Shown here: positions 8,070 to 54,359 of the stretch, in pieces
Layout of the letters: each line of letters begins with the position of its first letter
Position numbering within the stretch: the stretch's first letter is position 1
From: Alphaproteobacteria bacterium
Lineage (GTDB): Bacteria > Pseudomonadota > Alphaproteobacteria > UBA828
DNA length: 64,000 nucleotides
Direction: 5' to 3'
Assembly: GCA_963422645.2 (NCBI GenBank)
Contig: CAXXVO010000006.1
Coordinates: 224,001-288,000 of the forward strand
Notes under the pieces: model-generated
The model's input: only the letters and a program-made list of their open reading frames with translations
Databases searched by the model: none
Told to the model about the DNA's origin: nothing
Translations under genes and position numbers: made by a program

Positions 8070-9440
8070 ATGCATACCGTGGAACTTTATCGGAAGGTCC
8101 GTCTCGCGTGTCGGGACGGGATGAGTGAGCGGGCTGCGGCGCGTCATTTCGGGATTTCACGCGAGAGCGTGAAGAAGATGCTGCAGTTTTCGGCGCCGCC
8201 GGGCTATCGGCGGACGGCGCCGCTTCGGCGTCCGAAGCTGGACGGGTTCATCGAGATCATCGACGGGTGGCTGCGGGACGATCTGGAGCAGCTGCCCAAG
8301 CAGCGGCACACGGCGAAGCGCATTTTCGACCGTCTTCGGGCCGAGCACGGGTTCAGCGGCGGCTACACGATTGTGAAGGATCATGTGCGCGAGCATCGGC
8401 GCCGGCGGCGAGAGATGTTCGTGCCGCTGATCCATCCGCCGGGGCATGGGCAGGCGGACTTCGGCGAGGCGCGGGCGGTGATCGGGGGTATCGCGCGCAA
8501 GGCGCACTTCTTCGTGTTCGATCTTCCGCACAGCGACGCCTGCTACGTGCGGGCCTACCCTGCGGCGACGGCCGAGGCGTGGATGGACGGGCATGTGCAT
8601 GCCTTCGCCTTCTTCGGCGGGGTTCCCCGATCGGTTCTCTACGACAACGACCGCTGCCTGGTGTCGCGCATCCTGGCCCGGCGCAACTTCATGGTGCCGC
8701 TGCCACGGTTTGCGAGCTGGGAAGAGTTCAACCTGCGGCTCGAGGAGCAATGCCACAGCCGCCAGGGCGATATCCTGCGCGGACACCGCGAGACCATCGG
8801 AGAGCGCCTGGCGCGGGATGTGGCGGCCATGGCCGCGCCGCCGGCTACGCCCTTCGAGGCCTGTGACCAGGCTCCCGGCCAGGTCAGCTCGCAGTCTCTG
8901 GTTCGCTATCGGACCAACGACTACTCGGTGCCGGTGGCCTATGGCCATCGTGACGTCTGGGTACGCGGTTACGTCGATCGAGTGGTGATCGGCTGTGGCG
9001 GAGACGTCATCGCCCGCCATCCCCGGTCCTATGAGCGTGAGGACATGATCTTCGAGCCGATCCACTATCTGCCCCTGATCGAGCAGAAGATCGGCGCCCT
9101 GGACCAGGTAGCGCCGCTCGCCGGATGGGACCTGCCGCCCGCCTTCCAGACCCTGCGCCGCCTGATGGAGGCACGCGCGCTCAAGGCGGGGCGGCGGGAG
9201 TACGTGCAGGTCCTGCGGCTGCTGGAGAGCTTCGGGCTGGAGGATCTCCACGCCGCAGTGAAGGATGCCCTGCGCCTGGGCGCCATAGGCTTCGACGCGG
9301 TCAAGCACCTGGTGCTGTGCCGCCTCGAGAAGCGCCCGCCGAAGCTCGACCTCGATGTCTACCCCTATCTGCCGAAGGCTACCGTCGGCAGGACCTCGGC
9401 GGCCAGCTACATGTGCCTGCTGTCGGAGGACGCGGCATGA
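8070..9440 (+). pseudogene. istA: IS21 transposase IstA with an in-frame internal deletion near 8675
   Basis: QADFG and YDND are present, but DNDRCLVSRIL joins ARRNFMVP directly; the KGxVE catalytic segment (about 40 aa) is missing. Confidence 0.8.
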
Positions 9441-10105
9441 CGGACACGCCCCACATCCTGCTGGCGCACCGCCTCAAGGCCCTGAAGCTGCCGACCTTCC
9501 TGCGCCAATACGAGAAAGTGGCGCACCAGTGCGCGGCCGAGGGCCTGGATCATATCCAGTTCCTGGCCCGGCTGGCGGAGCTGGAGTTGATCGAGCGCGA
9601 AGGGCGCATGGTCGAGCGGCGCATCAAGGCGGCGAAGTTCCCGCTCGCCAAGAGCCTCGACAGCTTCGACTTCAAGGCCATGCCCGCGCTGAACAAGCCG
9701 CGGGTGCTGGAGTTGGCGCGCTGCGAATGGATCGAGCGGCGCGAGAACGTCATCGCCCTCGGCCCATCGGGCACCGGCAAGAGCCATGTCGCCCTGGGGC
9801 TCGGACTGGCCGCCTGCCAGAAGGGGCTGAGCGTGCGCTTCATCACCGCAGCGGCGCTGGTGCATGAGCTCATGGAGGCGCGTGACGAACGACGACTGCT
9901 GCGGCTGCAGAAGCAGCTGGCAAGCCTCAAGCTGTTGATCATCGACGAGGTCGGCTTCGTCCCGCTATCGAAGACAGGCGCCGAGTTGCTGTTCGAGCTG
10001 GTCTCCCAGCGCTACGAACGGGGCGCCACCCTGATCACCTCCAACCTCCCCTTCGACGAATGGACCGAGACCTTTGGCTCCGAGCGCCTCACCGGGGCGC
10101 TCCTC
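9437..10105 (+). pseudogene. istB: IstB, C-terminally truncated and fused in frame to an amidohydrolase tail
   Basis: GPSGTGKSH, LIIDEVGF, TSNLPF, RLTGALL, then the sequence switches. Confidence 0.85.
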
Positions 10106-10624
10106 AACGACGACCGCGACATGCTTCTGGAGATGCGCATGGTGCTCAACGTGCACCGCGAGCCGGGCTTCGACGACAGCGTGCCGACCTCGGCCCAGGT
10201 GCTGCGCATGGCGACGTCGAATGGCGCGCAGACGACACCGTTCGGCACCGAAATCGGTTCGCTCGAGGTTGGCAAGGCGGCCGATATGGTGCTCATCAGC
10301 TGGCGCGACATCACCGGCCCGTTCCTCGATCTCGACATCGACGTCTCGGTAATCGACGCGATCGTCCTCCGCGCCAAGTCGTCGGGCGTCAAGACGGTGC
10401 TGGTCGCAGGCGAGCCGATCCTGCGCGACGGCCGCTTCACGCGGCTCGACCGCGAGGCGGCGCTGGCCGAGCTCGCCGCGTCGCTCAGGCGGCCGGCCGA
10501 CGACGACGAGCTGCGGCGCATCGCGCTCAGCCGCAACGTGCTGTCCCATGTCCGGAAGTTCTATGACGGCTATCTCGACGCCGAGACGCGCGAGCCCTTC
10601 TACGCCCGCAATTCGCGTCGCTGA
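10106..10624 (+). pseudogene. C-terminal remnant of an amidohydrolase (Atz/Trz/SsnA-like)
   Basis: NDDRDMLLEMR, MATSNGA, IGSLEVGKAADMVL, VKTVLVAGE. Confidence 0.8.
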
Positions 10625-11255: not shown

Positions 11256-11368
11256 CTCGGGCGCGACACCCAGCGAAAAACCGCCTGAAACAACCGAAAT
11301 GTATCAGAATTCAAGGAGTTCCCGGCACGCTGCCCAGAACAGCCAGCATCACGAGGTCAGGAAGTCTG
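11256..11368 (-). mobile_element. Isolated left end (113 bp) of the ISNCY-type element
   Basis: Reverse complement of 3162-3274. Confidence 0.9.
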
Positions 11369-11478
11369 AACCTATACAGTCAAGCGGAGATCAACGACGC
11401 GCCGACGGCGAAACGGCACCGACGGCAAGCAACATCAGCACGCACTCAGAACTGGCGGCGGGGTACCTGGGTAGTTAC
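11369..11478 (-). mobile_element. IS66-type terminal remnant
   Basis: Ends GGGGTACCTGGGTAGTTAC, identical to 53765-53783. Confidence 0.8.
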
Positions 11479-34164: not shown

Positions 34165-34568
34165 GTAACTGCCCAGGTTCTTGCTGTGAAAATTCTCTGG
34201 GATTCGGCACAACGCTACCCACGCGACGCCCGTGTGCTCCTCTGTGGTCGCCGGGTTTCACAGCTCACGATGCCCCTCTTGCGGACTGCGACCGGTAAGC
34301 TACCCCGATGTGGCCCGAAGTCCGCCCGCGCGACGGGCACCGATTTTCATTCTATGGGGTGGTCCAGCACGGCGTCGACCATGATCGTTTATGAGAATGG
34401 CTCCGCTGTTGGAGAACCCGTGCCAGGTGAGCTTACGCGCACTTGACGGTGGCGATGAGCCGATCCGATGGGCTGGTCAGGGCTTCGATGATATTCCAGC
34501 CCTGCTTTCTGGCGGTGGTGATGACGCTGCGCAGGATGGCGAAGTTCTCGGCCCCCTGCGCGGACCGC
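34165..34568 (-). mobile_element. IS66 right-end remnant with the last ~45 codons of TnpC (34433..34568)
   Basis: IR GTAACTGCCCAGG; RSAQGAENFAILRSVITTARKQGWNIIEAL parallels the TnpC tail at 51441-51580. Confidence 0.82.
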
Positions 34569-50584: not shown

Positions 50585-51440
50585 TCTCGATTTGCTACAG
50601 TAGAGACTGTGACCTTCCTTTCCCTTCTCTCGCTGCGGATTGCGGCCGCTTCTCGATTTGCTACAGTGCCGTGAGGTAGCGCACGTAGCCACAGCAGCTG
50701 CGGATTGCGGCCGCTTCTCGATTTGCTACAGTCGGGTCGAGAAAGACCATCCCCGTCGTCTCGCTGCGGATTGCGGCCGCTTCTCGATTTGCTACAGTCG
50801 CCAAGAAGGAGGATGTGACGATGGAAGCGCTGCGGATTGCGGCCGCTTCTCGATTTGCTACAGTGCACAGGTTGGCCTTGAAAACCCCACTCAAGCTGCG
50901 GATTGCGGCCGCTTCTCGATTTGCTACAGTACGGAACATCAAACACCATCGGAAATATTGGCTGCGGATTGCGGCCGCTTCTCGATTTGCTACAGTCAGC
51001 CTCCCCAAAGGACTCAACGTCGAATGGCTGCGGATTGCGGCCGCTTCTCGATTTGCTACAGTCATCCTCAATGCCTTCCGACAACCCGCCCCGCTGCGGA
51101 TTGCGGCCGCTTCTCGATTTGCTACAGTGGCTGACGATGTGGACTGTACGGGAGAAGTGCTGCGGATTGCGGCCGCTTCTCGATTTGCTACAGTGCGGAC
51201 CTGGTGGGGTATTGTGGTGCTGTCGCTGCGGATTGCGGCCGCTTCTCGATTTGCTACAGTCAATGAAGTTCCTGTGTAACTGCCCAGGTACCCCCTCTCT
51301 CTTATGGAACAAGCCAGTTCCTTTTGCGTCAACGCCCCCACGCCGCGGGGGTGCCTACTCTCTTGAGCGCGAGAGGATGATGAACGCCGCGTCGCGAACA
51401 AGATGAGAGGACAGCGATACTCAGGATGAGCCGGAGAAGT

Positions 51441-52979
51441 TCAGGAGCGCAGTATAGGGATCAGCTGCATCGGTTCCGGGTGCGCCAGGATTTGCAGGAT
51501 GTTCCAGCCTTGCTTTCGAGCGGTGACGATGACGCTGCGCATTCCGGCGAAGTTGCAGGCGCCTTGCAGGGAGCGGAAGCCGCCTGAGATCTTCTCATGC
51601 ACTTTGTTCATACGGATGTCACGCTCCGCCTCGTTATTCGTGAACGGCGTGCGCAGGTCGGTGAGGAAGCGCAGGCAGCCCTCCTTATGCTTTTGAAGGC
51701 GGCGCGCGAGGTTGTGGCCGATGCGGCGTTTCTTTCGCCCTCGCTTTGCGATCTGGAGCGGCGGTTGGGCCTCATGGAAGGCGATGGCTTCTTCGAGGAT
51801 ACGGTCCCATGCCCTTGAGATGCGGGCCACCAGGGAGGCGGGGACTTGACGGTCTTTCTCACGGGCGAAGCGGGCGGCCCTGCGCGCGCGCTGAAGCAGG
51901 CGGTGCATGCTCGCCGCCCATTCCTCCTTCTCGATGTCGATCAGGGCCTGGAGTTCGCGCAGGTGATGTGCGTTGCAGGCGCCGTGGCGGACGCCCTTGA
52001 TGGTGAAGTAGGGGGCGAAGTCGTCGTGGACGAGGATGCCTTTCAGGTTCTTTTCGACATCGCCGCGTCCCTCGCCGATGCGCAGGACGGTGAGCAACGG
52101 GGTGCACAGCACATGGAGCCAGCGGGTACGGGCGGCGATACGCAGGCCGGTCTCGTCGAGGTGCTTGACCGGCGCCTGCGTGCGGATCAGATCGGCGACA
52201 TGGTCGAGGAAGCCCTCGAAGCGCTGCGCTGTGCGCCGGCCCATGGCGGCGATCGTGGCAGTGGAGATGGACACCGCGAAGATGTCGCTCATGAGTTCGG
52301 CCAGACGCTTCTCGGGCACGAACTGGGCGTACAGCAGGTAACTCACCCAAGCGGTGATGCGAGGGCCGTACTGGACCGGGGCGGTGACGCCCGGCGGGAA
52401 GGCGGCTCGTGTCAGCGTGCCGCATGCGCCGCAGAGGCAGCGATGGGCGCGGTGTTCGGTGACCTCGAGAGGCTGCGGCTCGGGTACGTCGAAGACCTGC
52501 CGACAGGCGGGCGCGCCTTGCCGGTCGGCGTCCGAGAGCTCGACGCCACAGCCGGAACAGGTGGAGGGGTGGTGATCGACGACACGGTCCGGGCTGTCGC
52601 TCCGCGCGAGGGTGGTTCCCTTGTGGCCGGGCTGGCCGCCACTGGGCCCGCCGGACTTTCCGCGCTGGCTTTGGGTGCGCCTCTGGGCTCCGCTTTTCTT
52701 CTTGAGCCCGTCGCTGGCGGGGGGCTTGCTGCTTGTGGTGCTGTTGAGGGCCGCGCTGCGCTCGAGTTCGGCGATGCGCTCGCGCAGGGCCGCGTTCTCC
52801 TGCTCGAGTGCGGCATTTTCCCGGGCGAGCGCGGTGGCTGATCGCAGCAGCCCCTGCCCCCATTCCCGGACGGCAACGACGACAGTGGTTGCGAGGGATG
52901 ATGGCTCGAGAAGCTCCTTCAGGCAGCAGAAGGCCTCGTTACGGGCGGCGAGGTCTTCGTGCCAGTGCGACACCGTCAC
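51441..52979 (-). CDS. IS66 transposase TnpC (512 aa, GTG start)
   Basis: NSTTSSKPPASD, GGQPGHKG, CxxC motifs, HLDETG, VHDD, CNAHHLREL, TNNEAERDIR. Confidence 0.9.
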   Translation of the reverse strand: MTVSHWHEDLAARNEAFCCLKELLEPSSLATTVVVAVREWGQGLLRSATALARENAALEQENAALRERIAELERSAALNSTTSSKPPASDGLKKKSGAQRRTQSQRGKSGGPSGGQPGHKGTTLARSDSPDRVVDHHPSTCSGCGVELSDADRQGAPACRQVFDVPEPQPLEVTEHRAHRCLCGACGTLTRAAFPPGVTAPVQYGPRITAWVSYLLYAQFVPEKRLAELMSDIFAVSISTATIAAMGRRTAQRFEGFLDHVADLIRTQAPVKHLDETGLRIAARTRWLHVLCTPLLTVLRIGEGRGDVEKNLKGILVHDDFAPYFTIKGVRHGACNAHHLRELQALIDIEKEEWAASMHRLLQRARRAARFAREKDRQVPASLVARISRAWDRILEEAIAFHEAQPPLQIAKRGRKKRRIGHNLARRLQKHKEGCLRFLTDLRTPFTNNEAERDIRMNKVHEKISGGFRSLQGACNFAGMRSVIVTARKQGWNILQILAHPEPMQLIPILRS

Positions 52980-53641
52980 GTGTCTTCGGCCTCGACGGCC
53001 ATCATGGCGGCGAGCACGGCGAGGCGTTCGCCCGGCGGCAAGGCCTGGTAGCGCCGGCCCCAGTTGGCTGCCTTGCGCTTGATGCGCTGGCGGTCGGTGA
53101 AGTTCCGGCCTGCGTGGCTGGCCCAATGCATCCGGTCGGGGGCGTAGTTGAACCAGACGACCTCGGTTCGCACCAGACCCTGGGTCGTGACCTGCAGCGC
53201 CAGCCGGCGCCATCCCGCCAGCACCTCGTCATAGAGCGCCGACGGATGGCCCGAGATCATGACCTGGCAGGGCAGAGCCTTGAGCAGCGCGAGAAGCGCG
53301 ACGTGGCCGGCCTCCTCGTACTCGAAGCGGTAGCGCTGCGCCGAGCGGCGGGTCGCGTGCAGATAGGGCGGATCGCTGTAAACCAGCTCCGGGCCCAGGA
53401 ACGGGAACGAGGCCAGGAAGTCATGGGCACAGCCGTGAACCAGATCGACCGGGTAGTCGCAGACGAAGGCCTCGAGCGCCTGCGCATCGCGGTCGATGCC
53501 GATCGAACGCACGGCCGGCGGCTTGCGCTTCGTCAGCGCCCCGCCCCCAAGGTGGCTTTCGATGTAGACGGAGTGCGGCGGCATCAGCGCAATCAGCGCT
53601 TGGCACAGACCTGCTGTCGCCTTCGAGCCGAAATACCCCAT
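52976..53641 (-). CDS. Small Dam/D12-class DNA adenine methyltransferase
   Basis: YFGSK (motif X), YIESHLGGGA (motif I), YSDPPY (motif IV), VMISG, RTEVVWFNY. Confidence 0.8.
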   Translation of the reverse strand: MGYFGSKATAGLCQALIALMPPHSVYIESHLGGGALTKRKPPAVRSIGIDRDAQALEAFVCDYPVDLVHGCAHDFLASFPFLGPELVYSDPPYLHATRRSAQRYRFEYEEAGHVALLALLKALPCQVMISGHPSALYDEVLAGWRRLALQVTTQGLVRTEVVWFNYAPDRMHWASHAGRNFTDRQRIKRKAANWGRRYQALPPGERLAVLAAMMAVEAEDT

Positions 53642-54023
53642 GGACCGCTCCCGTCACGCGAGAGAGCAGTCCATAGTCCCGCAACTCTATGAGGTCAAGA
53701 ACCAATCGCGGTGGCAGAACCAGGCCGCGGCCGCCGCCATAATCACCGTCCTCAACTCAGGATTGGGGTACCTGGGTAGTTACGTTCCTGTGTGCACTCC
53801 CTAAGGCTGCGGATTGCGGCCGCTTCTCGATTTGCTACAGTGATCCTCTGGATGCACAAGGAGGGAAGGCCGCTGCGGATTGCGGCCGCTTCTCGATTTG
53901 CTACAGTAACGACATGCACGCCTGCCTGATGAAACAGGCTGCGGATTGCGGCCGCTTCTCGATTTTCTACAGTTTCCCGAGACGTAAGGCATTGAACGGA
54001 CGTCGTTTTCGTCCGCCCACTGG

Positions 54024-54359
54024 TCAGAAAAACTCCAGTTGTGCGGGCGGATTCGGCGGTGCCTTGCGGGTTTTTCCGACATAGGTCTCGATCCGGCCGA
54101 ACTGTTTGTCGGTGATCGTCAGGAATCGAACCTCTCCCGCGGACGGAACGCGGCGCCCCATTCTGGCCGCGTGAACCTTGGCGTTCTCGATCGATGCACA
54201 GTGCCGAATGTAGACCGAGTACTGCATCATCGTGAAGCCGTCGTTGAGCAGATCCTTGCGAAACCTCGCATAGGCCCTGCGCGCCTTCGGCGTGTCGGTG
54301 GGCAGGTCAAACATCGCGATTACCCACATCGTGCGCCAGCCCCACGGAATTGTTTTCAC
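54024..54359 (-). CDS. cas2: CRISPR-associated endonuclease Cas2
   Basis: MWVIAMFDLP, FRKDLLNDGFTMMQYSVY, ITDKQF. Confidence 0.93.
   Translation of the reverse strand: MKTIPWGWRTMWVIAMFDLPTDTPKARRAYARFRKDLLNDGFTMMQYSVYIRHCASIENAKVHAARMGRRVPSAGEVRFLTITDKQFGRIETYVGKTRKAPPNPPAQLEFF

Follow-up and report, generated by a model that had tools for sequence, protein, structure and literature searches.

The subject of this analysis is a 2508-bp insertion sequence of the IS66 family located at positions 51276-53783 of a 64,000-nt stretch of alphaproteobacterial DNA (lineage UBA828; positions 224001-288000 of one contig in a 5.9-Mb assembly), and it is this whole stretch that we refer to as the window. 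Both genes of the element lie on the minus strand, with a gene for a 221-aa protein placed directly in front of the transposase gene tnpC: the protein resembles DNA adenine methylases (Dam) in its predicted fold and is homologous to Upf31 of IncP-1beta plasmids, for which reason we call its gene upf31-like. By analogy with Upf31, we consider it probable that this gene and its control region form a portable autorepressor cassette by which transposase expression is throttled: an IS66 element with tnpC as its only gene (ISBst12-like) would have acquired a three-part upstream cassette, consisting of a sigma-70-type promoter, an overlaid operator CATAG-N10-CTATG and a gene of the Upf31 family.

The limits of the element could be read directly from the sequence. 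Its terminal inverted repeats of 19 bp, GTAACTGCCCAGGTACCCC on the tnpC side (51276-51294, plus strand) and GTAACTACCCAGGTACCCC on the side of the upf31-like gene (53765-53783, minus strand), pair in 18 of 19 positions, where the chance expectation from shuffling was 0 in 100, and they are flanked on the left and right by copies of the 8-bp target-site duplication GTTCCTGT (51268-51275 and 53784-53791). Two open reading frames (ORFs) fill the element apart from 307 bp of non-coding DNA: the upf31-like gene (52976-53641) and tnpC (51441-52979), which encodes a DDE transposase of 512 aa, meet in a GTGA overlap (52976-52979) holding the stop codon of the former and the GTG start of the latter. 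This start is supported by the relatives of TnpC, since they align from residue 1, immediately past a stop codon of their own, and the overlap would allow translation of tnpC to be coupled to that of the gene before it. The element thus delimited is the one described in the earlier note on this DNA, which had listed its length, the 19-bp repeats, the 8-bp duplication, the 221-aa protein with a DPPY motif and its overlap with tnpC, as well as the palindrome GGTACC that is present in both inverted repeats of the window copy. Two related ends reported there are also real: positions 11460-11478 match the right repeat exactly, a second end lies at 34165-34178, and neither of these IS66 remnants retains the methylase-like gene, as had been claimed.

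Within its own genome, the element is present in 36 full-length copies of at least 99.7% identity, together with many fragments interrupted by other insertion sequences. Perfect 8-bp target duplications flank 22 of the 36 copies; they are all mutually different and 63% A+T, in a genome of 67% G+C. Because these 22 copies carry distinct perfect duplications, both genes move as one unit, and the element is confirmed as an active IS66-family insertion sequence whose two genes are mobile together. The upf31-like ORF is intact in 36/36 copies and tnpC in 28/36, in agreement with the previous suggestion that the methylase-like gene is an integral part of the element. A sister element in the same genome is represented by 24 full-length genes, its small protein being 85–87% and its TnpC 74–76% identical to those of the studied element.

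The putative promoter and operator of the upf31-like gene (53670-53698, minus strand), 28 nt before its ATG, were recognised through alignment of 19 upstream regions taken from loci with all types of transposase partner. They comprise a -35 hexamer TTGACC (53698-53693, minus strand), a -10-like hexamer TATGGA (53675-53670, minus strand) and the inverted repeat CATAG-N10-CTATG (53672-53691), all situated between the gene and the end of the element. When the pattern was then counted within 100 nt of the start codon, 152 of 157 loci displayed TTGAC-N4-TAG-N10-CTA in front of the gene (156 by a looser pattern; locus L162 lacks it), against a mean of 0.0 in shuffled sequences. In the consensus of 89 distinct promoter sequences, TTGACA and TATGCT are separated by 17 nt and the inverted repeat occupies both the spacer and the -10 hexamer; the commonest half-sites among 88 distinct promoters are CAACATAG (41) and CTATGCTG (32). 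In the genome of the window, CATAG-N10-CTATG occurs 59 times, where 1.5 occurrences are expected, and all 59 are found inside the cassette: 57 by a gene start and 2 in fragments of the element. The sister element (e.g. G000:C8:733609-735809) exhibits TATAG as its left half-site, not CATAG. A terminator scan of the studied element returned one terminator-like site (plus strand, 51306-51321), below the shuffle mean of 1.8.

This arrangement is shared with the upf31 gene of IncP-1beta plasmids. Upf31 of pBP136 is 45% identical to the 221-aa protein over 222 alignment columns (E 2e-67), a full-length homology that extends to residue 218 and includes DPPY and the C-terminal tail; relatives of 46–56% identity occur in 196 plasmid records, including 134 that are conjugative, and IncP-1beta upf31.0 is among them. 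The Upf31 proteins of pBP136, R751 and pB3 have in common with the studied protein their size, a Dam-like core with DPPY and a basic C-terminal helical tail, and in both cases TTGAC is followed by 8-nt inverted half-sites 10 nt apart: the commonest halves in the insertion sequences are one base away from the IncP-1beta halves CAGCATCG/CGATGCTG, and like these they leave a 10-nt gap and abut the -35 hexamer. CATAG-N10-CTATG is also present at a Xanthomonas plasmid homolog. According to a 2024 preprint on Upf31, the protein acts on the 68-bp region of its own promoter, reducing expression from 4.76 to 0.09 XylE units, residues 173-225 are required for this autorepression, and a pair of inverted CAGCATCG repeats is the likely operator (10.1101/2024.02.05.579024). 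The two systems also differ: upf31 belongs to the plasmid backbone as a lone gene that no transposase follows, four groups of its repeats are distributed around the plasmid, and Upf31 is proposed to talk to KorB, whereas in the insertion sequences each element has a single operator, with no further sites in the rest of the genome, and the gene precedes a transposase in a putative operon and belongs to a clade of its own.

In order to characterise the 221-aa protein itself, both its sequence and a structural model were compared with known methylases. The AlphaFold2 model (predicted local distance difference test score 90, predicted template modelling score 0.83) contains a minimal Rossmann core of approximately 165 residues followed by C-terminal helices 181–199 and 203–220. 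In a Foldseek comparison it matches E. coli Dam, DpnM, Mcbe1 and T4 Dam best (template modelling score about 0.55), with Dam, DpnM and T4 Dam sharing the Rossmann core, the N-terminal GxK motif, motif I and DPPY; the S-adenosylmethionine (SAM)-binding motif I and the catalytic DPPY of the D12 methylases are thus both found on a Rossmann fold. Only 55 residues separate motif I from DPPY in the model, and the D12 target-recognition domain is absent. Curated family models were not reached by the single sequence: PF02086 (D12) scored 12.0 bits against a threshold of 22, with no Pfam family above threshold, TIGR00571 from NCBIfam scored 21.1 bits against 114.85 and covered the C-terminal part only, and a sequence search of the PDB gave no match. 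A profile built from 43 homologs did match DpnM with E 2.6e-8 and Dam with E 5e-5, covering two stretches of each (Dam 10-64 and 162-240; DpnM 16-73 and 183-266) and skipping approximately 90 residues of these enzymes that comprise the recognition domain, which the 221-aa protein lacks. Across these 43 sequences, which reach down to 39% identity, G5, H23, G32, D90, P91, P92, H113 and G131 are invariant and K7, E28, G34 and Y93 nearly so (E28, G34 and Y93 in at least 90%). Sequence and model together suggest that the protein is a Dam-fold member of the Upf31 family that lacks a target-recognition domain. A further difference to E. coli Dam is apparent from its homolog: in the preprint, Upf31 produced in methylase-free E. 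coli gave neither detectable GATC methylation nor any other detectable modification, as judged by GATC-sensitive digests and SMRT (single-molecule real-time) sequencing (10.1101/2024.02.05.579024). The methylase-based function put forward in the earlier note is therefore not supported by this sole tested homolog, which retains DPPY and is reported to act as an autorepressor (10.1101/2024.02.05.579024).

The pairing of the upf31-like gene with a transposase is not restricted to the studied element. Searching with the small protein yielded 160 loci (80 from species genomes, 80 from metagenomes), and classification of the gene directly downstream revealed an IS66-family transposase in 129 of them: 62 of these transposases are at least 60% identical to the studied TnpC, and 67 are other IS66 transposases, of which 61 were classified through BLASTP against a partial reference from locus L084 and 6 through a weak match to the studied TnpC, with five (L081, L087, L111, L116 and L117) confirmed by Pfam or NCBIfam. 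The remaining loci exhibited an IS701-family transposase (10), an IS1634 gene judged to be a nested insertion (2), relics (2), an unclassified or weakly classified gene (2) or a contig end that was too near (15). A reverse search from TnpC covered 60 other genomes of the same class, five of which contained a match with an E value of 1e-30 or better. In these other genomes the upstream gene is present in 15/15 loci whose TnpC is at least 75% identical and absent in 3/3 loci with a full-length TnpC of 58–59% identity; it is likewise missing from loci L177 and L178, which hold short TnpC fragments. With all 15 close loci paired, the one-off capture of the gene considered in the earlier note was not borne out. 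The five genomes with a match are 4 of 20 of the same genus and 1 of 40 others, a patchy distribution that points to horizontal spread.

Two further candidate partners were rejected. An IS630 gene at locus L064 proved to be an unrelated neighbour, as only 826 bp around the upf31-like gene are common to a second copy (L067), and the IS1634 genes at L157 and L160 (NF033559, E 8e-74) follow an IS66-type left end and represent nested insertions; at L156, a piece of the IS66 tnpC is retained between the upf31-like gene and the IS1634 part. One genome (G011) contains ten loci, of which five share one frameshift in the upf31-like gene and yet occupy different sites. This frameshifted lineage (L185, L189, L192, L194 and L196 in G011; also L075-L077) is altered near residue 32 of the gene, occupies at least five sites and has an intact tnpC. 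A database protein of 236 aa (P0126) combines about 150 N-terminal residues of the upf31-like type with a C-terminal tail of IS66 TnpC and is probably a deletion fusion.

Comparison across partners reveals that the same cassette, with a gene product of 66–95% identity, heads several IS66 lineages whose transposases are only 22–35% identical to the studied TnpC; these divergent carriers display the ends GTAACTACTCACCC and 8-bp duplications. The IS701-type carriers are genuine multi-copy units of 2.5–2.8 kb with inverted repeats of their own, CTCGACTTTGTACATTT, and 5-bp CTNAG duplications; their transposase matches NF049999 (E 1.4e-91) and their upstream protein is 71–85% identical to the 221-aa protein. 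The IS701-type elements additionally contain a third small ORF, divergently oriented upstream of the cassette (L072:3472-4002 and L085:3611-3899, both minus strand), of which the last 95 residues or so are conserved between two lineages and which has no Pfam match. In a tree of 112 distinct proteins, obtained by a quick search with support from the Shimodaira-Hasegawa-like approximate likelihood ratio test (SH-aLRT) only, the 109 proteins borne by insertion sequences group together, separate from three plasmid homologs (SH-aLRT 99, with a warning for long branches). The IS701-partnered proteins are found in three places inside a clade of 31 (support 99), which also contains all 20 proteins partnered with close relatives of the studied TnpC. 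From this scatter within a shared clade it follows, on the strength of the tree, that at least one exchange of the cassette between IS701 and IS66 elements would have taken place, in either direction.

Membership of the element in the IS66 family is clear from its transposase, which matches PF03050 (E 4.4e-41, 141.6 bits; cut-off 23.1) and NF033517 (E 3.6e-86, 289.7 bits; cut-off 180) as well as zf-IS66 and DUF6444. Ends opening with GTAA and an 8-bp target duplication are typical of IS66, and the 19-bp repeats of the studied element open with GTAAC. Canonical IS66 elements (tnpA-tnpB-tnpC) share this transposase family, end type and duplication length; unlike them, the studied element possesses neither tnpA nor tnpB, given that it accommodates two long ORFs only and that no IS66 accessory domain was found in the upstream ORF by Pfam or NCBIfam. 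The earlier statement that a methylase gene stands in place of tnpA and tnpB hence holds for the absence of these genes and is imprecise as to the replacement. The nearest transposases without an upf31-like gene are encoded by 1.8-kb single-ORF elements in the same genome (TnpC 59–60% identical from residue 51 onward), and because these closest gene-less relatives have a single ORF, the gene is better regarded as an addition to a tnpC-only element. In the ISBst12-type group, as defined in ISfinder, tnpC is the sole gene: the studied element agrees with this group in its TnpC (PF03050, zf-IS66, NF033517), GTAA ends and 8-bp duplication, and differs in the second conserved gene and its own promoter-operator upstream of tnpC. 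The single-ORF relatives share the opening GTAACTGCCCAGGT of the left end, while the studied TnpC is about 50 N-terminal residues longer (alignments begin at residue 43-51).

The 1.8-kb single-ORF element (e.g. G000:C8:577360-579175; window 34241-34567) displays the left end GTAACTGCCCAGGTCGTCTG and is represented by 140 blastn pieces of at least 95% identity, 98 of which share one right boundary; copies of the studied element are often found no more than about 250 bp away from it. Many copies of the studied element are interrupted at element positions 180, 416 and 438 by another insertion sequence with the end CAGACTTCCTGACCTC (window 11341-11362), and this recurrence suggests that the latter has a preferred target inside the studied element. 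A near-identical element occurs in several samples: contigs of nine public sequencing runs from six studies contain at least half of the element's sampled words, although one of these runs may be the source sample. A run with a low share is labelled a sponge metagenome.

If the cassette works in the manner of Upf31, a single message from its promoter would contain both the upf31-like gene and tnpC, with translation of the latter coupled through the GTGA overlap. The protein would bind the operator via its globular Dam-like domain and C-terminal helical tail and so would silence its own promoter and, with this, transposase synthesis. A burst of transposase would then be possible only while there is little repressor, for instance shortly after the element has entered a naive cell, and in a genome with dozens of copies the transposase would be kept low in trans. 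Such an autorepressor fits with a gene that is conserved while the transposases behind it diverge, an operator that is confined to the cassette, the ORF that is intact in all 36 copies and the multi-copy frameshifted lineage in G011, the latter showing that the protein is not required in cis. Several points weigh against it. The argument for repression comes from one preprint on a plasmid protein of 45% identity (10.1101/2024.02.05.579024). A generic promoter scan of the element returned 0 promoter-like sites, the -10-like hexamer here being TATGGA, and of the half-sites in the studied element, CCTCATAG and CTATGGAC, only the 5-nt cores fit the family consensus. DPPY and the SAM-binding motifs are also invariant throughout the family, which would not be expected for a pure repressor. 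Finally, the strain used for SMRT sequencing of Upf31 is described in the preprint as lacking the plasmid with the operator repeats (10.1101/2024.02.05.579024), and this test could have missed a methylase whose target is long and rare.

Since binding alone does not account for the invariance of the catalytic motifs, an operator-specific methylase stays a live rival, albeit one that we regard as unlikely. Here the protein would be an active, highly site-specific adenine methylase with the operator as its target, methylation of the -35/-10 region would set promoter activity, and the transposase burst would be timed to unmethylated or hemimethylated DNA. There is an established precedent in the regulation of IS10 and IS50 by host Dam methylation, where, in concept, a mark or binding at the transposase promoter similarly limits transposition; in that case the methylase belongs to the host, whereas the studied element would supply its own enzyme. 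Besides this precedent, the Dam-like fold and the invariance of motif I and DPPY in 43 homologs favour such an enzyme, the half-sites form an adenine-containing inverted repeat that overlaps the -10-like hexamer, and the absence of the pattern elsewhere in the genome would fit a rare target missed by a motif finder on E. coli DNA. Set against this are the missing target-recognition domain, the PF02086 score below cut-off and the lack of detectable modification by Upf31 in spite of its DPPY motif (10.1101/2024.02.05.579024). Methylation of the operator is compatible with repression by binding, and both could hold. We regard it as quite doubtful that the protein, as a Dam-fold enzyme, binds its own operator and also methylates it, with the cassette serving as a portable governor repeatedly captured by IS66 lineages and by IS701.

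We judge it highly improbable that the protein is a general orphan adenine methylase that modifies GGTACC ends, protects DNA from restriction and rewrites the host methylome. Orphan methylases on conjugative plasmids are commonly read as anti-restriction genes, and the conjugative plasmid relatives, like the GGTACC in both inverted repeats of the window copy, would suit this role. The proposal of the earlier note that these ends are methylated loses its basis in related elements, however: the nearest relatives keep GGTACC only at the gene-side end, with GTAACTACCCAGGTCTGATT at the tnpC-side end, and the ends of the divergent IS66 and IS701 partners do not contain it. What accompanies the protein throughout is the promoter-operator rather than an end sequence, and both the missing recognition domain and the lack of detectable methylation by the tested homolog (10.1101/2024.02.05.579024) speak against a general methylase. 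A single capture, after which the gene would be carried along as an inert passenger with no role for the element, is disfavoured to the point that we give it hardly any credence: the frameshifted lineage is indeed still multi-copy, but its copies coexist with intact ones able to act in trans, the ORF is more often intact than tnpC, the gene is conserved across two families of insertion sequences while their transposases diverge, and the promoter-operator is kept in nearly all loci.

The copy in the window has inserted into a clustered regularly interspaced short palindromic repeats (CRISPR) array of 13 repeats (50633-53973; 35-nt repeat, 30-31-nt spacers), where it interrupts one spacer, which measures 30 nt once the element and one copy of the duplication are subtracted. 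The local effect of this copy is hence a split CRISPR array. The array adjoins cas2 (54024-54359, minus strand) and a cas1-like ORF, and its spacers gave no match in the own genome beyond the array itself. Further away, two overlapping plus-strand ORFs (8070-10624) appear by eye to be istA/istB-like genes of IS21 type (a transposase with an N-terminal helix-turn-helix and an ATPase with GPSGTGKS).

Self-regulation of insertion sequences is usually attributed to the transposase gene of the element or to factors of the host. IS1 InsA and Tn5 Inh are element-encoded proteins that, as we propose for the upf31-like protein, hold transposase expression or activity down; these stem from the transposase gene itself or from its DNA-binding N-terminal part, whereas the studied protein exhibits an unrelated Dam fold, has its own operator and is exchangeable between families of insertion sequences. 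No description of an insertion sequence with an upf31-like or methylase-like gene was found in a literature search, ISfinder, TnPedia and REBASE lying outside that search, so that a catalogued entry may exist. The scale of the family is considerable, with 3704 matches in one search and 5554 half-identity clusters, and databases label such genes "DNA adenine methylase", a name that the sole tested relative argues is wrong or incomplete. If the protein both binds and methylates its operator, transposase would be made only from copies that are unmethylated or have just been replicated. Transposition would then be under a self-encoded epigenetic switch, and this would be the first insertion sequence to bring its own Dam-type control. 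If it is a repressor, as we consider probable, this would explain how the genome tolerates such a high copy number (36 copies plus 24 genes of the sister type) without killing of the host, and the cassette would represent a compact autoregulated expression module of practical use. A separate, exchangeable cassette of promoter, operator and proposed repressor heads transposases of at least two unrelated families, its protein retaining 66–95% identity while the partner transposases diverge nearly past recognition.

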